Below are positions 1,076 to 27,344 of a stretch of 29,986 bases of DNA, piece by piece. Source of the stretch: a virus; UHGV virus genome UHGV-0038722. The stretch is one strand, 5' to 3'. The first letter of the stretch is position 1, and each line of letters begins with the position of its first letter. The notes beneath the pieces were generated by a model. That model did not search any database, was not told the DNA's origin, and worked only from the letters and a program-made list of their open reading frames with translations. The position numbers and the translations under genes are program-made.

Positions 1076-1999
1076 TCAGTAGTTATGAACTGAAGGAGGT
1101 AATTCTTTATTCTTAAGTCTCATCCATGCGGAAAGATTCGTTGGTCCGTCTGGCTCATTGATATCAACATCTCGTGTGTGATTGATTAAAACGTCTCTTG
1201 CCATATCGATAATACGGGAGAACTCATAACCGCAGTCATGACATCTGCCGGAATAGTTCGATTGAATTTGTTTTAGTGCCGGATACAGTTCGCGGAATAA
1301 TGCCTGTGAGCGGTTGGCATAATCCCATAACCATACAAGGCTGTTTGCTTCTTTTGCAGAAAGCTCGTTTGCTTTCTTCTCTTGTTTGCCGATTAACTCG
1401 CCTTCAAGCGGAACGCGAGCTGCAAGTGACAGAGCTTCGGTAAACTGCTCATCGCTGATTTCTTTGTATGAACACCCAAAACGAGATTTCAGTGACGACC
1501 ACATGGTGATCATCGCCTTAGCCTGCTTTTCTTTTGGCAGAGACTGACCGCGACTCATGACGAGTTGTTTAATGGCTTCCTGCTGTTCAGTGGTGATTTT
1601 ACCCGGCAACGCCTTTTTAGCTTTGCGTGGGTTAACTACATGGCCTTTAGTCCAGTAGTCGTAGAGCACATCGTCACACTCTTCCTGATACTGGATTACC
1701 TTGTCGCGGATTTCAGGGCGGACTTTGTTAGGACTGATGCTGTTCAACCAAGCTGCCAATTTTCGTAAAGCCATACAAATCATGGCTTGCACCCCACCGG
1801 CAGAAGGTATGGTGATTTCCACCATACCCTTCGAGAAGCGTTGAGAAATCTTCTTATGTTGAGATTTCCAGTCTAGCCCCATTCCCTCAACGATAGGTTT
1901 CATTGGGGTATACGGTTCGCCGTTGTGATTGACAACATAAAGCTCTGCGCCGTGGAATGGTACATTGATAGTAGATACTGCTGTTGCTATACTTTTCAT
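1076..1999 (-). CDS. ant: Antirepressor Ant-like protein (AntA-type N-terminal domain, Cys-containing C-terminal region)
   Basis: 307-aa ORF; N-terminal region resembles AntA/Ant antirepressor domain; located after arc as in P22 immI; AGGAA SD upstream. Confidence 0.7.
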   Translation of the reverse strand: MKSIATAVSTINVPFHGAELYVVNHNGEPYTPMKPIVEGMGLDWKSQHKKISQRFSKGMVEITIPSAGGVQAMICMALRKLAAWLNSISPNKVRPEIRDKVIQYQEECDDVLYDYWTKGHVVNPRKAKKALPGKITTEQQEAIKQLVMSRGQSLPKEKQAKAMITMWSSLKSRFGCSYKEISDEQFTEALSLAARVPLEGELIGKQEKKANELSAKEANSLVWLWDYANRSQALFRELYPALKQIQSNYSGRCHDCGYEFSRIIDMARDVLINHTRDVDINEPDGPTNLSAWMRLKNKELPPSVHNY

Positions 2000-2066
2000 G
2001 TCGTTAATTCCTATGCGTGGTTTTACGATACCGAAGCCCTGACTGTTACCGCAGTTGGGGCTTCAA
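1997..2066 (+). ncRNA. Putative sar-like antisense RNA covering the ant start codon and RBS
   Basis: Plus-strand sigma70 promoter (-35 TTGATA 1965-1970, 17-bp spacer, -10 TATACT 1988-1993) firing antisense into ant start; hairpin 2033-2064 followed by U-rich stretch; architecture matches P22 sar (inference). Confidence 0.35.
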
Positions 2067-2266
2067 CTTTCTGCTCTATCAGTTATATCTTTCCCTTCAT
2101 ATACTTCACCTATATTGCTAATGCTGGCAGAACATCCAAGATGCTTGTATCTTATGATGTCCAACACGCAGTCACTACACAGCATCCGACCTGTTTCTTT
2201 AGAGTAAATGTATGTTTGATCAGCGTCTGATTCGCTAATGCCGCAGAAACAACATTCTTTACTCAT
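2063..2266 (-). CDS. Small cysteine-rich (zinc-ribbon-like) protein between arc and ant, unknown function
   Basis: 67-aa ORF with CCFCG...CSDC motifs; ATGA start/stop overlap with arc indicating translational coupling. Confidence 0.55.
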   Translation of the reverse strand: MSKECCFCGISESDADQTYIYSKETGRMLCSDCVLDIIRYKHLGCSASISNIGEVYEGKDITDRAES

Positions 2267-2403
2267 ACCGTTATCCCCTCTCTCTTCAGGCTGTCCATCA
2301 CCCGTTTAATTACTTCTGCACTAAATGAGCGACACTCTTCCTTTGCTTTCTCTTCAAGGATTTTTTCTAACTTCTCTGGCATACGCAGTGTTTTTACCTT
2401 CAT
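2263..2403 (-). CDS. arc: Arc-like ribbon-helix-helix repressor
   Basis: 46-aa ORF (below ORF-track size cutoff; hand-translated MKVKTLRMPEKLEKILEEKAKEECRSFSAEVIKRVMDSLKREGITV); resembles P22 Arc (RSVNSEIYQRVMESFKKEG); GGAGG SD; divergent from mnt. Confidence 0.75.
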   Translation of the reverse strand: MKVKTLRMPEKLEKILEEKAKEECRSFSAEVIKRVMDSLKREGITV

Positions 2404-2415
2404 TGCATCCTCCGT

Positions 2416-2480
2416 TGTATGTGGTACGCATACATAGTATTTAGGTACGCATTGATAGTCAATAGATACCTACATATCCT
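2416..2480. promoter_or_regulatory. Divergent overlapping promoters Pant (minus) and Pmnt (plus) with two operator-like inverted repeats
   Basis: Pant: -35 TTGACT (2457-2462) and -10 TACTAT (2434-2439) on minus strand, 17-bp spacer; Pmnt: -35 TTGATA (2452-2457), -10 TATCCT (2475-2480); inverted repeats tgtatg-N7-cataca (2416-2434) and attga-TAG-tcaat (2451-2463). Confidence 0.6.
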
Positions 2481-2508
2481 GTGGTAAAAAATTATTCAGG
2501 ATGTGCCG

Positions 2509-2760
2509 ATGTCTGATCGTAAGTACAAAAACCCTCAAGTGAATCTGAGGCTTCCTGTAGAGATAAAGGAGCGTCTTATTGAACTGGCTGAGGCTAATTC
2601 TCGTTCATTAAATGCTGAGATGGTCGCGGCACTTGAAGCGTGGACCGAAAAAAATAAACACATTCAAGCACTAGACCTTGCAACTATAGCATCACGATTG
2701 ATAGATCTTGAACGCGATGTTGAGACGCTAAAGACCATGTATGGTAAGGATGAAAAATGA
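2509..2760 (+). CDS. mnt: Mnt-like ribbon-helix-helix repressor
   Basis: RHH N-terminus (PQVNLRLPVEIKERLIELAEANSRSLNAEMVAAL) plus C-terminal helical region; divergent from arc as in P22 immI; ORF track starts at 2503, AGGA SD favours ATG 2509. Confidence 0.75.
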   Translation: MSDRKYKNPQVNLRLPVEIKERLIELAEANSRSLNAEMVAALEAWTEKNKHIQALDLATIASRLIDLERDVETLKTMYGKDEK

Positions 2761-3122
2761 GTGACAATTCAGGATACTCAGACGATCAACTGCGAGAGGC
2801 TGAATATCGCAAGGCGCTATCGTCTATAACTACAAAGGTTCTCGACTCTTTCTTGAGAGCTAAAGGTGTTCCAGACGAATGCCCAATGTGCGGGCAGTCT
2901 GAAATGGTTGTCCCTCAAGTTCAATTTGTAAATCAGGATAATGGAAAAGACATCATGGGTAGGCATGCCCATTATGGTGAATATATAAAAAACGAAGATG
3001 AATCATTCAACCCAATAAATTACTCTTATCATGTAATTTGCAAGCATTGCGGATACATTATGCAGTACAACACAGGTGTTGTGTTAAGCTGGTATCTAAG
3101 GGAGAAAAACAGCAATGTCTAA
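2757..3122 (+). CDS. Hypothetical zinc-ribbon protein, first gene of mnt-coupled accessory cassette
   Basis: 121-aa ORF; ATGA overlap with mnt stop; CPMCG and CKHCG motifs; no family recognised. Confidence 0.6.
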   Translation: MSDNSGYSDDQLREAEYRKALSSITTKVLDSFLRAKGVPDECPMCGQSEMVVPQVQFVNQDNGKDIMGRHAHYGEYIKNEDESFNPINYSYHVICKHCGYIMQYNTGVVLSWYLREKNSNV

Positions 3123-3450
3123 GTTGAAGTTGGCTTACGATGCTGACAATCCTTTTCCGAATAGCGAATTTGCCCCCATCGGAATTGAAGACTCAGAAGA
3201 GCCAGCACATGGAGGTGGCAATGGAGGAGGATCAGATATGAACAGTAGAATGACCCGCATTGAAACGATTGCCGCCAACCAAGAAAAGCTAATATCAGAA
3301 ACTAGAAAAGAGTTGATTGGCATCCGTGGCGACATGCACGGAATGGAGCGTCGCCTAGCAGATAAGATGGACGAGAATCAGAAGTGGCTTATCGCCCTCA
3401 TGATATCTGCAATCCTTGCTCCGCTGTTTATTGCCTTGGTTACCAAATAG
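3115..3450 (+). CDS. Hypothetical tail-anchored membrane protein (C-terminal TM helix)
   Basis: 111-aa ORF overlapping upstream gene by 8 nt; GGGAG SD; Gly-rich linker GGGNGGG; hydrophobic C-terminus WLIALMISAILAPLFIALV. Confidence 0.6.
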   Translation: MSKLKLAYDADNPFPNSEFAPIGIEDSEEPAHGGGNGGGSDMNSRMTRIETIAANQEKLISETRKELIGIRGDMHGMERRLADKMDENQKWLIALMISAILAPLFIALVTK

Positions 3451-3471
3451 CTACTAACTAAGGAGATTTGT

Positions 3472-3795
3472 GTGTATACAACAGTTATCGTGATAGCTAT
3501 CGCACTCATTGTGGTTCAGTACCAACTGGCATCTTTAAAACAAAAGATATCTGACCTCAAGACTGAGAACGAAGCACTTAAAAACTCAATAAAAGATGAG
3601 AAGAACAAACTATCATTCACTATATCTGATATTGAGCAATCCATTGAAATTATTGAGAATAATATTAACAGACTAAAAAAAGAAGATATTCATGAAATCA
3701 ATGACAATATCAAGGATTTGAAATCTTGGCTTAGGAATGTAGGACAAATCGCCACATCAACACGAGATAAGCTCAATCCATCCATGGATGATTAA
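3472..3795 (+). CDS. Hypothetical membrane-anchored coiled-coil protein (N-terminal TM helix)
   Basis: 107-aa ORF, GTG start with AGGAG SD 6 nt upstream; N-terminal TM YTTVIVIAIALIVV then K/E/N-rich heptad-like sequence; strongly AT-rich. Confidence 0.55.
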   Translation: MYTTVIVIAIALIVVQYQLASLKQKISDLKTENEALKNSIKDEKNKLSFTISDIEQSIEIIENNINRLKKEDIHEINDNIKDLKSWLRNVGQIATSTRDKLNPSMDD

Positions 3796-13467: not shown

Positions 13468-15666
13468 TTACTGCTGTGGTTGTTGCTGAGTTGATTTTTG
13501 CAGGATGCTGCTGATGTCCATGCGCTGCGCATGACCCTGTGCCTGACTTTTCAGGACAAGCTCTGCATCAGCACGGGCATTGTCTCCTTGCTGTTGCTGG
13601 AACTGTCCGAGCAGTTTCAGAGCCTCGCGGATATCAGATTTCTGCTGGCTATCGGCAGATGCGAGGATTTTCACAACGTTTGCCGCTGCAACCTGAGCAT
13701 CAGTCTGTGCCTGGAATGCTTTAACCTGAATGGCTGCCTGTTCGTTCTGCGCTTTCTGCAATTCAGCCTGACCTGCAAGAAGCTGACCTTGCGCTGCAAC
13801 CATAGCCGGATCTGGCTGACTGGCCTGTTGTTGTTTCGCCTGCTCAACCATCTGCTGTTCTTCTGGTGTTCTCGGCTTGATAACTCCAGACAGAAGCAAC
13901 TGATTGCGGTTGTATTCTTTAAGGTCGTCCATCCCTTCGCCGTCCATATTGTCGAGAATCATCGACGATACAAGGTCGTGCTTCGGCGTTCCTGGTGGGA
14001 TAAGTGCCAGCATGGAAAGTAACGACTTAACCGTTGCATCACGGCGAGTAGAGAACGACTGACCAACATCGACAGTCACTTCATAGTTACCCTGCGAAAG
14101 GTCGTTAAGCGCGATAACCTGCCCTGTCTGACGGTCAACCACTTCACCAGTCATCAACGCCACGTCATCGCTGCCGTCCTCATTAACAATGCGCATTGGC
14201 GTATCGCTGCCATAGACTTCACGAGCCATAGAAAGCCACACGACGCCAGCGCGGCGCATGGATTTAGCCATGTTGTCCATGTAGATATAGGACTGCGTGT
14301 CCATCCGGTTAAAGATGCTATCAACGGTATCGGTAGCGACGTTGCTCGGCATATTCTCAAGCTGCGACGCACCTGTAATTTGCTGAATAGCCGTTCCGGT
14401 GTACTGCAATAGCCCGGCAAGAGCAGGAGGCATTTGTGTCGGAGGTGTATAACTGCTGACCTGAGCCTGCGCAGTAATATCTCCGTTTTTGTTTTTCAGA
14501 CTTACCATCGGCAGGAACGCCGGGCGCTTTTTGTTGCGCTCCGCCCAATGATTGGCGAGAGGACCAGGAATCATGTCAACATCAACTACAGGAATGCCAT
14601 CACCGCCAGCCTGAGTAGCGTTATCTGCAATCATGGAAACCATCAGGTTCTCAAGACGCTGTGCATCCATCGCTTTTGCTGCGTGGCCTTCGATTCGCTC
14701 CTGATTATCAACAAATGAGCGACGCCCATATACCGGGATGAGTGGAATATGTTCTCCCGGAATACGCTTTGGTTCTTCCAGCCATTCAGCGCCAGACAGA
14801 AGGCCGCAATAAACGCGGCGTTTCTTCACCGTTCGCTCACCAATCAGTTCGAATGCGCCATCGGTTAGCTCGTCGACAACATCTTTGATTTGCTCTTCAT
14901 CATAGATTGCCGTTTCTCCGCTAACAGGGTTGCGCCACGCCGTGAGCTTCACCTTCTCTATGCGAACTTCGTAGTAGCGTCCAACATAGATGGCATCGGG
15001 CGTTGACCAGTCATATTGAGTGCCAGTGTCATCACGAGAAAGGCTTGCCGCGATGGAATCAGGGTATTCAGCCTCGAACGCTTTAGGCGTCATGGAGAAC
15101 ATTTCCATAGCCCACATAGCATCAGAGCGGTCATATTGCTTGCTGTCCTGATCGAAGAAGACGCATGTCGCTGGGTCGTAAACAGGAAGAAGGCTGATGC
15201 GTCGCTGCTCGTTACTCGGATCCATTTCATCTTCGTAATCAGCACACATGCGGAAACAACCGAATCCGCCCGTTACAGCATCATCAAATGCGTTATCACA
15301 CGCTTCGCCACCGGATGTTTCCTGATAATCAGCGCGGAATTTGCCGTTCATCTTTTCGGCTAACGCTTCCGATGCCTTGTCATCCTTCGGCCTGAATTTA
15401 ACGCTGATGCGATTCTGCCGATACTCGCCAATGATGCGATCACATTCACGGGAAATCTTATTCAGTTCAAAACGCGGATAATGCTCAAACCTGCCTTCAT
15501 CAAATGAGTAACCAGCGTTTGTGCTGCCTTCCCACTGTGCGCCGGACACCCGGACGAAACGTTGAGCCTCAATAATCTGCTCACGCATATCCTGCGTTGC
15601 TGACCAGGCATTATCAAAGTTGCACAGCACCTTGCGATGCCAGTCAGTCATCTTTTTTTCTGCCAT
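13468..15666 (-). CDS. Portal protein, P22 gp1-like
   Basis: 732-aa ORF after terL; long Q/A-rich helical C-terminus typical of P22-like portal barrel. Confidence 0.85.
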   Translation of the reverse strand: MAEKKMTDWHRKVLCNFDNAWSATQDMREQIIEAQRFVRVSGAQWEGSTNAGYSFDEGRFEHYPRFELNKISRECDRIIGEYRQNRISVKFRPKDDKASEALAEKMNGKFRADYQETSGGEACDNAFDDAVTGGFGCFRMCADYEDEMDPSNEQRRISLLPVYDPATCVFFDQDSKQYDRSDAMWAMEMFSMTPKAFEAEYPDSIAASLSRDDTGTQYDWSTPDAIYVGRYYEVRIEKVKLTAWRNPVSGETAIYDEEQIKDVVDELTDGAFELIGERTVKKRRVYCGLLSGAEWLEEPKRIPGEHIPLIPVYGRRSFVDNQERIEGHAAKAMDAQRLENLMVSMIADNATQAGGDGIPVVDVDMIPGPLANHWAERNKKRPAFLPMVSLKNKNGDITAQAQVSSYTPPTQMPPALAGLLQYTGTAIQQITGASQLENMPSNVATDTVDSIFNRMDTQSYIYMDNMAKSMRRAGVVWLSMAREVYGSDTPMRIVNEDGSDDVALMTGEVVDRQTGQVIALNDLSQGNYEVTVDVGQSFSTRRDATVKSLLSMLALIPPGTPKHDLVSSMILDNMDGEGMDDLKEYNRNQLLLSGVIKPRTPEEQQMVEQAKQQQASQPDPAMVAAQGQLLAGQAELQKAQNEQAAIQVKAFQAQTDAQVAAANVVKILASADSQQKSDIREALKLLGQFQQQQGDNARADAELVLKSQAQGHAQRMDISSILQKSTQQQPQQ

Positions 15667-25019: not shown

Positions 25020-26470
25020 CAGAATCCTCCTTTCTTCTTGGACTGCGGTTCCTCGCGTTCACGGCGGCGCATTTCAGCAGACTGTTGGTCTGTGTCATAA
25101 ATAGCGCCATTTGCCTGAATGCAATACACCGTGCCGGTATTGCCATGACGATTGAGGCGAAGGATTAGTTCGGTTTCACCAGGAGGAACGCTGTCATCAA
25201 AAGCACCTTCACGATGGATCCCCACCCAATAATCGCAATCCTGTTCAATCTGCCCTGTATCTCGTGAGTCACTTGGTAATGGGCGTTTATTGGTTCGGCT
25301 TTCCAGTGCGCGGTTAAGCTGTGTCAGAAGCACAACAACGCAATCAAGCTCTTTGGCAAGGTTCTTCAGTCCTTTGGTGATCATGCCGTAAGCAAGGTCG
25401 TTGCGATCGGCCTTTTCAGCGGTCATTAGTGTCAGGTAATCGACCAGAATCATGCCAACACATCCTTTTTCTCGCTTGATTCGACGGCTTTCGCTGACGA
25501 TTTGAGCCAGAGATAATCCCGGCGTGTCGTCGATGTAAAGCAGGTCGATTTCACTCAAGCGATTGGCTGTTTCGATCGCCCTGTTGAAGTCACCATCGTA
25601 ATCACCCTGATAGCCGTCATCAGCGTCATTTGTCGCCGGAAGGTAAAAAATATTCGGGTTAACACCTGACTTCTGTCCCACCAGTTTTTCCAGTATCTGG
25701 TCACCTGGCATTTCAAGGCTGAACATCAGAGCGGGCTTTTTCTCATGCACTGCGCAGTTGATTGCCATCTGGCTGTATAGCGTCGTTTTCCCCATCTTAG
25801 GGCGAGCGCCAATGACAAACAGAGAGCCTTTCACCAGACCTTTCGGTGACAGCATCCTGTCCAGCGATGGGATCCCTGTGCTCATTCCTCGTTGTTCGCC
25901 TGACGGGTCAAATCGCTTCTCAAGGTCGCTAACCCAGTCTTCCATGACCTCACCAAATGAGCGAAGGCCGCGACGCGATCCGGTTTTTGCATGGTCTGTC
26001 AGTTGCGTGAAAATCGCCTGAATAGCTTCGTACTTCTGCGTTGCAGTCATTCCGTTGCGGGAATAGAGCAATTCCGTCGCTTCAGTCATGCGGTTGATGG
26101 CGTAGCGTTCCATTGCGGTTTCACGAACCTGCATTGCATAGGCAACGATGTTTGCTGCGCTTGGCGTGTTCTTTGCGATCTCAGCGATATAAGCAAAACC
26201 GCAAACAGACGCCGTTAACGATTTGCGCTCCAGTTCATCGAAAAGCGTCAGGCCATCTACTGGCTTTTGCTCCCGGTGCATTCTGGTTATTTCTTCGAAA
26301 AGGATTTTGTGTGGTCGGCTGTAAAATGAATCAGGCTTCAGCATCGCCAGAACTTTCTGGACGCGCTCACTGCTGTCATCATCCAGAAGCAATCCACCAA
26401 TCACCGCCTGCTCTGCCTCGATGCTATGGGGCGGCGCATAAAAATTATCGGTCATCGTGTTCACCCTCAC
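25019..26470 (-). CDS. Replicative DNA helicase, DnaB-like (P22 gene 12-like)
   Basis: 483-aa ORF; DnaB N-terminal SIEAEQAVIGGLLL; Walker A GARPKMGKTT; alternative start MTDNF at 26455. Confidence 0.9.
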   Translation of the reverse strand: MRVNTMTDNFYAPPHSIEAEQAVIGGLLLDDDSSERVQKVLAMLKPDSFYSRPHKILFEEITRMHREQKPVDGLTLFDELERKSLTASVCGFAYIAEIAKNTPSAANIVAYAMQVRETAMERYAINRMTEATELLYSRNGMTATQKYEAIQAIFTQLTDHAKTGSRRGLRSFGEVMEDWVSDLEKRFDPSGEQRGMSTGIPSLDRMLSPKGLVKGSLFVIGARPKMGKTTLYSQMAINCAVHEKKPALMFSLEMPGDQILEKLVGQKSGVNPNIFYLPATNDADDGYQGDYDGDFNRAIETANRLSEIDLLYIDDTPGLSLAQIVSESRRIKREKGCVGMILVDYLTLMTAEKADRNDLAYGMITKGLKNLAKELDCVVVLLTQLNRALESRTNKRPLPSDSRDTGQIEQDCDYWVGIHREGAFDDSVPPGETELILRLNRHGNTGTVYCIQANGAIYDTDQQSAEMRRREREEPQSKKKGGF

Positions 26471-27344
26471 GAACTTTCAGGTAGGTATTGTCGTTAAGCA
26501 GGAAATCAAATCCCTTTTTGTGCCAGACGGTTCCGCGTTGATGGTTTGGACGCTCTTCGAACATCCATCGGCAATTTTCGCCTACGTAGCTCAAATAATT
26601 TCTCCAGTCCTGCATCGTGAAACCATGCCCGTCAAGCTGTCGGGTTATCACTCCGGCTTTGCGCCAGAACGTTCGGATCTGGTTTTTACGCTTGTCATTC
26701 AGTGCGCGGATTTTTGGCGCTTCAGGAAGGATTTCGTGGTAAGCATCGACAACATCCTGACAGCTAACGGAAGGTTTTTTCTTGTCAGACTTTTTGTCTG
26801 CTGCGGTACTCTCTAATACGTCAGTATTAGAGATAATATTATTATATTCTTTATCTGTGGTAATTTGCTGGTAATCTGCTGGTACAGTATTGCTTGCAGG
26901 CATTGGTATTGCTGGCTTTGAGGTGGTAATTTGCTGGTAATCTGCTGGTACAAAATTTGACTGATAATCGTCATATTTCTCTACCGAGAAAACTGAGAAT
27001 TTACCGTGTGAAACCCAGTCAATCATGCCGAGTTTTTTGAACTTTCTAAGCAGGTACTGAACGCGATCTGGTTTGAGTCCTGTTTCAAACGCCAGAGAGT
27101 TTCTACCGCCAAGTAGCTTCCCTCTGCCTACCAGAATTTCTCCTGCGTCAGTCATTACATACTCAGGCGTATGCTTTGCTTTGAGGATTAAGTGAACCCA
27201 CAGATGCGCAGCTTCTGCGTCCTTGTAAAACGGCACATCCATAATTTTACGGTGCAGCAAGGCATACCCCTTACCGCTGCTTTGATGCGGTTGTTGTAGC
27301 CTTCTGGCCTCTCTGGCTTCGGCTAGATTAGATATGTTACTCAT
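26445..27344 (-). CDS. Replication initiator, O-like (P22 gene 18-like), containing origin iterons
   Basis: 299-aa ORF upstream of helicase; internal protein repeat [10 protein letters not shown] x2 coinciding with DNA iterons. Confidence 0.8.
26857..26952. repeat. Origin iterons: 30-bp direct repeat gtggtaatttgctggtaatctgctggtaca at 26857-26886 and 26923-26952, each built from a ~10-bp sub-repeat tgctggtaat
   Basis: Direct repeats 66 bp apart inside the O-like gene, analogous to lambda ori iterons within O. Confidence 0.7.

Follow-up and report, generated by a model that had tools for sequence, protein, structure and literature searches.

The immunity I (immI) region of phage P22 is a textbook circuit, and work on it has treated it as an operon of two genes, arc and ant, accompanied by the antisense RNA sar. 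In the P22 genome arc occupies positions 14861-15022 and sar positions 15021-15090, ant begins at 15091, and no gene lies between arc and ant. The 29,986 nt stretch of viral genome UHGV-0038722 analysed here (hereafter the window) carries a reading frame of 67 codons at this junction, which raises the question of whether the operon yields a third protein and what such a protein might do. The original prediction, made from the nucleotide sequence, was that an additional cysteine-rich gene is wedged between arc and ant, coupled to arc and overlapping the hairpin of a sar-like RNA, and that it could be a regulator or an anti-defence factor co-expressed with the antirepressor.

PHROGs and protein databases already list the protein family as 'hypothetical', and no paper on the ORF came up in literature searches, which covered phage proteins resembling the ClpX ZBD as well as the peptide sequence, the PHROG identifier and the RefSeq accession. 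What is new is a variant of the P22 immI operon that has an exchangeable third cistron with at least three alleles. It is carried, among others, by CUS-3, a phage that modifies the K1 capsule, and by prophages found in uropathogenic E. coli, Salmonella and Citrobacter. We propose that the ORF is a genuine small gene, one allele of a cassette that is exchanged in the interval from the arc stop codon to the sar terminator. For this explanation we estimate a probability of about 0.6; the further step, that the product acts as a ClpX decoy, we rate much lower.

Genomic context of the ORF

The DNA belongs to a P22-like (Lederbergvirus) prophage of E. coli, whose immunity I region, the 'ant moron', makes up the first 6 kb of the window. 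Phage CUS-3 (CP000711) matches positions 1000-2800 at 96% identity, and the chromosome of strain ws5-3 matches positions 1900-2520 at 100%. The genes of this region are, in order, the 3′ part of the tailspike gene, ant, the 67-codon ORF, arc and a divergent mnt-like gene, followed by three small genes of unknown function and a gene for a P22 gene-16-like ejection protein. Beyond this region the window contains the late operon and lysis genes, and it also encodes a Q-type antiterminator, a DnaB-like helicase and an S24-type repressor. The features of a P22-type immI region are present, namely divergent Arc/Mnt repressors, overlapping promoter-like sites, a P22_AR-type Ant and sar (Table 1). The Psar-like site is homologous in position to the annotated sar promoter of P22 (15097-15125), and the Pant-like site would drive arc, the ORF and ant. 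The mnt-like gene is labelled 'Arc family DNA-binding protein' by PGAP and mnt in the CUS-3 record.

Table 1. Positions of the immI features in the window.
Feature	Position	Strand	Evidence
ant, antirepressor, 307 aa	1076..1999	-	P22_AR_N E 2.4e-45, P22_AR_C E 1.4e-27; phrog_245 E 2.6e-94
Psar-like promoter, TTGATA-17-TATACT, within ant 5′ end	1965..1993	+	10/12 matches, TG before the -10 hexamer
sar antisense RNA	2001..2068	+	Rfam RF00262, 85.7 bits (gathering score 43), E 1.2e-17, model 1-68/68
67-aa Cys-rich ORF	2063..2266	-	phrog_7150 match
arc, 46-aa ribbon-helix-helix repressor	2263..2403	-	Pfam Arc E 2.9e-9
Pant-like promoter, TTGACT-17-TACTAT	2434..2462	-	consensus match only
Pmnt-like promoter site, divergent	2452-2480	+	overlaps the Pant-like site, as in P22
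mnt-like ribbon-helix-helix repressor, divergent	2503..2760	+	Pfam Arc E 3.2e-10

Two further stretches of the region deserve mention. The very AT-rich intergenic segment at 700-1000 (GC 0.27), which separates the tailspike gene from the 3′ end of ant, corresponds to the 'bsq1 boundary sequence' of CUS-3. On the other arm, mnt is followed by a chain of three genes on the plus strand. The first (2757-3122) encodes a 121-aa protein of unknown function (phrog_4293) with two CxxC pairs (CPMCG ... CKHCG), and because its ATG overlaps the mnt stop codon as ATGA, a coupled zinc-finger ORF is found on both immI arms. The second, overlapping gene (3115-3450) encodes 111 aa with a hydrophobic C-terminal stretch (phrog_6324; weak XhlA/holin-like matches), and the third (3472-3795) encodes a 107-aa hkcB-like protein (phrog_5962) that matches coiled-coil families.

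The product of the ORF, MSKECCFCGISESDADQTYIYSKETGRMLCSDCVLDIIRYKHLGCSASISNIGEVYEGKDITDRAES, carries the motifs CCFCG at residues 5-9 and CSDC at residues 30-33 that had been pointed out in the original prediction. The ATG of the ORF overlaps the TGA of arc as ATGA at 2266-2263, and a GAGGGG Shine-Dalgarno-like run ends 8 nt 5′ of this ATG, so that the last 38 nt of arc hold both the Shine-Dalgarno sequence of the ORF and the start overlap. The spacer between the ORF and ant is 63 nt long and contains a full-length match to sar, and 41 contiguous nt there, with the terminator hairpin among them, are the same in P22. The 3′ end of sar covers the last sense codon and the stop codon of the ORF (2063-2068), so the prediction that the ORF runs into the sar hairpin was correct; sar is complementary both to the ribosome-binding region of ant and to the end of the ORF. 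The P22 coordinates given above likewise agree with the statement that arc is there directly followed by ant, with no counterpart of the ORF.

Coding potential, conservation and selection

Only one of the six reading frames of the ORF stretch is open, and the other five hold 1-11 stop codons. Mononucleotide shuffling left the frame open in 0.45% of trials (P = 0.0045), and the corresponding probabilities are 0.0026 for the cassette of Salmonella homologues and 0.0018 for a 74-aa cassette, both described below. GC content is 36-39%. The protein matches phrog_7150 from end to end (E 3.4e-50, residues 1-67 on positions 1-67 of the 67 in the profile), and the PHROG scan returned only phrog_5259 and phrog_20296 besides. 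On this sequence evidence the ORF is very probably a real protein-coding gene, and it is quite likely that it encodes a translated, zinc-binding protein.

The 67-aa protein recurs as 'hypothetical protein' in E. coli and in a few Salmonella assemblies, and the family is extremely narrow, with 7 clusters among 5.8 billion proteins. A phmmer search of 1.84 billion representatives gave 13 matches, among which the Salmonella protein P0014 is the only true relative. The other 12 are long repeat proteins and were rejected as summed chance matches, a verdict for which four sequences were inspected and found to be TPR or Ig repeat proteins. When 50,697 phage records were searched by tblastn, CUS-3 alone was found with the 67-aa and 68-aa proteins and nothing with the 74-aa protein. 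A profile search of genome contigs with the family alignment returned no locus, and among PDB sequences phmmer and hmmsearch found nothing beyond insignificant RING matches (RNF4, RNF31) that were driven by cysteine spacing.

The Salmonella homologues P0014 and P0019 are 68 aa long and 28-35% identical to the ORF product, depending on the alignment. Their genes also lie between arc and ant, with a start codon that overlaps the arc stop (ATGA or GTGA) and a TGA stop at exactly the position in the sar hairpin that the stop of the ORF occupies. Between the E. coli and Salmonella genes, the differences at first, second and third codon positions number 17/11/21 in 37 codons, third positions being the most divergent and second positions the least. 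Across 12 aligned family members 15 columns are invariant, including M1, E4, C5, C6, F7, C8, G9, C30, C33 and I37. Within the E. coli cluster, nine of the 14 single-residue variants fall at residues 47-67 and none at C6, F7, C8, G9, C30 or C33; C5Y variants do occur.

Evidence of purifying selection, whose absence was named with the original prediction as one way to refute it, is divided. The positional equivalent of the ORF, the 74-aa cassette, is clearly under purifying selection, with dN/dS of 0.16-0.26 in frame and 0.5-1.5 in shifted frames. The 67/68-aa family itself holds too little variation to decide: the six intact E. coli haplotypes differ by 2 synonymous and 3 nonsynonymous changes, for which dN/dS is uninformative, and the E. 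coli-Salmonella comparison gives a pN/pS of 0.63 with synonymous sites saturated. The two Salmonella subtypes are separated by 14.5 nonsynonymous and 2.5 synonymous changes, only 17 differences in all, and as their dN/dS is about 1.2, purifying selection is not demonstrated within this family.

Two observations on loci of the 67/68-aa family are recorded here in their own right. Salmonella prophages with the 68-aa homologue have a 178-aa gene of the CLP_protease family (ClpP-like) whose sequence overlaps the stop codon of mnt (L047-L052, approximately 2967-3503), and a HicA/HicB pair lies nearby. That a ClpP-like gene stands within a few hundred bases of a ClpX-ZB-like one could be chance, or could bear on the function. 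One Logan contig of 2564 bp (P0001) has a predicted 112-aa fusion of Arc and the 67-aa protein (...DSLKRGGDGMSKECC...), which probably results from a 1 nt indel or an assembly error in the purine-rich run just 5′ of the ATGA.

An exchangeable slot between arc and ant

In a prophage of ST131 the same place between arc and ant is taken by a different ORF of 74 aa, which also overlaps arc by ATGA. This second family is found in E. coli, Citrobacter and Salmonella, always between arc and ant, and its resemblance to the 67/68-aa family is weak (E 0.008). At the DNA level, the window and the 74-aa cassette have identical flanks up to the ATGA and from AAAGTTGAAGCCCC, at the foot of the sar hairpin, onwards, and are unrelated in between, so that the breakpoints of homology are the start and stop codons. 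The upstream flank is near-identical in the 68-aa cassette as well, and the conserved boundaries of the cassettes are thus the end of arc and the sar terminator hairpin. In some records the query is matched only over the 35-39 nt of the arc end, with two CDS beneath the match. The 67-aa allele accompanies Arc alleles of both 46 and 50 aa. Because the 74-aa allele is under selection, the breakpoints coincide with codons and the 67-aa allele occurs with different Arcs, we regard the slot as a site for exchangeable protein-coding modules, and this is the strongest argument that the ORF of the window is functional too. The direction of change may have been either way, as P22 could equally have lost a cassette rather than its relatives gained one. 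E. coli AVS0578 (L045, 1667-1792) has a 41-aa Arc-like protein (MPEWLEKALEQSAKKDDRSFSNEVLRRLKESVAKDGIVCPE) directly 5′ of ant with no cassette annotated between, an arrangement that adds to the diversity seen at the arc-ant junction.

The cassette is carried by approximately 370 complete E. coli genomes, and most of these copies appear to be a frameshifted relic. Judged by identity bands, approximately 300 complete E. coli genomes match at about 97%; they include many of O157:H7 as well as O145 and others. The relic copies examined, from EDL933 and 11 IMG/VR contigs, share a frameshift caused by an added T (+1) in the run TGTTGTTTC. In EDL933 (NZ_CP120944, L003, 2579-2822) the relic lies with a truncated arc in a degraded lambdoid prophage adjoining nleL, and it neighbours a hybrid Ant with a different N-terminal and a similar C-terminal part. 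As some 300 E. coli genomes appear to carry frameshifted copies, the ORF is dispensable at least in decaying prophages.

Annotation of the region is incomplete. The GenBank record of CUS-3 labels the stretch 'bsq2 boundary sequence' (L001, CP000711, 4008-4489) and shows neither arc nor the 67-aa ORF there, and PGAP omits the ORF in every E. coli genome among the matches listed. According to the paper on the epsilon34 genome, CUS-3 apparently lacks arc (PMC2629481). This looks like an annotation gap, because a 46-aa Arc (Pfam E 2.9e-9) is encoded at that place.

Resemblance to the ClpX N-terminal domain

[quoted passage not shown] The pairs C5/C8 and C30/C33 are separated by 21 residues, a spacing that agrees with CxxC-x(about 18-22)-CxxC, and all four cysteines are invariant in the 12-member alignment. 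The signature C-x-F-C-G ... (I/L)-C-x-x-C-(V/I) is shared with the N-terminal domain of ClpX. The conserved Phe of CxFCG aligns with the Phe of ClpX CSFCG, which is Phe16 by conventional ClpX numbering. Phe16 is part of a hydrophobic pocket of ClpX whose ligands are lambda O, SspB, RssB and trigger factor (PMC7804408).

Several independent scans point to the same domain. Among 24,736 Pfam models, zf-C4_ClpX (PF06689) is the sole match for P0014 (E 0.086) and P0019 (E 0.75) and the top match for the 74-aa protein (E 0.0015), with scores of 13.2, 10.2 and 18.9 bits that are all below the cut-off of 27. The window protein itself gives no ClpX match in Pfam or NCBIfam even at E ≤ 10. In NCBIfam, P0014 and P0019 match ClpX equivalogs only, and UniRef names the Salmonella homologues 'ClpX-type ZB domain-containing protein', a name that derives from a profile other than PF06689. 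When aligned by hhalign with residues 1-60 of E. coli ClpX, whose sequence was confirmed against 1ovx and 8e91, the 67/68-aa family scores E 5e-4 with a probability of 31%, both CxxC pairs being matched with those of ClpX, and the 74-aa family scores E 4e-5 with a probability of 70%.

The AF2 model of the window protein, built from 5 sequences, has a mean pLDDT of 62, or about 74 over residues 1-40, and at this moderate confidence shows a beta-hairpin followed by a helix that begins at the second CxxC; the model of the 74-aa cassette (pLDDT 49.5) is too poor to use. Foldseek found nothing at E ≤ 0.001 in PDB or BFVD, and ranked the ClpX zinc-binding domain 16th (E 0.72) among RING and ZZ fingers. 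As no single result clears a curated threshold, we do not assign the protein to the ClpX-ZB family. From the agreement of the scans, 'ClpX-ZB-like treble-clef zinc domain' appears to be the best description, and each of the three alleles resembles the portion of ClpX that is responsible for the choice of substrates and adaptors.

Possible functions of the ORF product

From the sequence and from P22 biology, the ORF would be transcribed from Pant on an arc-ORF-ant mRNA and translated through the ATGA coupling to arc, with its Shine-Dalgarno sequence embedded in the 3′ end of arc. It lies upstream of the point where sar blocks translation of ant and would thus escape control by sar. The product would be made whenever Arc is made, because the two share the Pant mRNA and are coupled. 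We infer co-expression with the antirepressor from the structure of the operon. The original prediction placed this co-expression in lytic growth; P22 Pant is active transiently, early in infection, and not throughout lytic growth. The ORF product would accordingly appear in a short burst after infection, or once repression by Mnt is lost.

The predicted N-terminal C4 zinc knuckle-hairpin-helix domain, followed by a variable and probably disordered tail, suggests a small zinc-stabilised module that would act by binding to other proteins. For the role in regulation or anti-defence suggested originally the data speak neither way, and the sub-threshold resemblance to the ClpX zinc-binding domain provides the sole lead to function. 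One candidate mode of action is mimicry of the ClpX N-domain, whereby the protein would take up ligands of that domain, either the tails of adaptors (SspB, RssB) or N-domain-dependent degrons. [quoted passage not shown] In either mode a phage or host protein would be transiently protected from ClpXP during the lysis-lysogeny decision. Shielding of a lambda-O-type initiator found no support: the 299-aa protein at 26445-27344, taken as the initiator from its position beside the DnaB-like helicase gene, has no Pfam match to the lambda O family. As the initiator of the prophage is not a recognisable member of that family, the most obvious candidate client is removed. We offer a decoy of the ClpX N-domain as a tentative and rather unlikely reading of the resemblance. 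The wider proposal, that the alleles of the arc-ant slot are interchangeable stand-alone mimics of the ClpX N-domain that reprogramme ClpXP and so bias lysis-lysogeny or induction, is a doubtful one.

Were ClpXP targeting disturbed in this way, antirepressor-driven induction would be linked to host proteolysis. The cassette proteins would then represent a previously undescribed class of phage inhibitor of ClpXP substrate selection, and they would provide a simple tool with which to probe the function of the ClpX N-domain.

Other explanations of the ORF call on the same observations. A chance frame in a spacer or 'boundary sequence' that acts as DNA or RNA, by setting the arc-sar spacing or as a recombination linker, would be in keeping with the annotation by the CUS-3 authors, with the silence of PGAP, with the dN/dS of about 1.2 between Salmonella subtypes, with the persistence of frameshifted copies in many genomes and with the narrowness of the family. 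It is nevertheless very improbable, as the frame stays open at 28-35% protein identity with its Cys/Phe/Gly core kept, shuffling gives probabilities of 0.002-0.005 for each cassette, the breakpoints of homology fall on start and stop codons, the sister 74-aa cassette is under clear purifying selection, a good Shine-Dalgarno sequence accompanies the ATGA overlap, and P22 needs no spacer at its arc-sar junction. If the ORF is a gene, it could be a moron, directed at the host or serving anti-defence or exclusion, that merely borrows the Pant transcript in order to be expressed early. The region is the known hypervariable 'ant moron' (PMC2629481), and P1 icd offers a positional precedent with a proven host target (PMC11897509). 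Exchange at conserved boundaries, a GC content of 36-39% and the fast amino acid change between Salmonella subtypes, as expected of arms-race genes, also fit. Most morons have a promoter or terminator of their own, but there is neither at the ORF. Moreover, Icd lacks the CxxC motif and is not homologous, nothing points to any target, and PADLOC gave no match, although its library holds models of defence and not of anti-defence. Taken together, this origin seems improbable.

A partner within the circuit is the alternative that we take most seriously, while still holding it to be unlikely. Here the ORF would encode a real small zinc-finger protein outside ClpX biology, an accessory of the antirepressor circuit that binds Ant, Arc, Mnt or the C2-type repressor and tunes the strength or specificity of antirepression, and the ClpX-like fold would be a generic dimeric scaffold for protein binding, as in CsfB/Gin. 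In favour are the position of the gene, which in every retrieved locus with an intact homologue lies between arc and ant, its coupling to arc, the preserved geometry of the sar/ant region, and C-terminal tails that differ between cassettes as would be expected with phage-specific partners. Pairing of particular alleles is not visible, however: the same cassette occurs with the 46-aa and the 50-aa Arc, different cassettes stand beside similar P22_AR-type Ants, and the frameshifted relic adjoins an Ant with a different N-terminal part. The P22 circuit, furthermore, works without such a gene. Our preferred explanation is the one given at the outset, an exchangeable small gene whose product may act as a ClpX decoy.

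Comparison with known systems

[quoted passage not shown] It differs in that the 67-aa protein stands alone without an AAA+ module, has 21 rather than 18 residues in the loop between the knuckles and carries an extra cysteine (CCFC), and in that profile scores are below threshold for its relatives and absent for the window protein. The anti-sigma factor CsfB/Gin of Bacillus subtilis (PDB 5N7Y) is a functional precedent for small ClpX-ZBD-like inhibitors, although it comes from another organism and context and has no sequence similarity to the ORF product.

By position, the ORF recalls the immI region of P1 (icd, ant1/ant2, C4 antisense RNA), where a small ORF of 73 aa likewise lies in an antirepressor operon controlled by an antisense RNA and is translationally coupled to its neighbour by a 4 nt overlap. 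Icd, encoded just upstream of ant, has a host target, FtsZ, which it blocks (PMC11897509). Whereas Icd is coupled to ant, whose expression requires it, the ORF of the window is coupled to arc and ends 63 nt 5′ of ant. The Icd sequence (AF234172) has no CxxC pair and no detectable similarity to the ORF product; homology was rejected and Icd is a positional analogue only.

The closest relative of the whole arrangement is the immI region of P22. The two share the divergent arrangement of Mnt-like and Arc genes, promoter-like sites that overlap, an Ant of the P22_AR type, and a sar of full length together with a Psar-like promoter within ant, and in both the upstream frame ends at the foot of the sar hairpin, this frame being the ORF in the window and arc in P22. 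In contrast to P22, the Arc of the window is a short allele of 46 aa, and the stretch that codes for its tail, SLKREGITV, includes the ribosome-binding site of the extra gene; a 201 nt coding cassette separates the arc stop codon from the sar terminator, so that the operon of the window has three cistrons.
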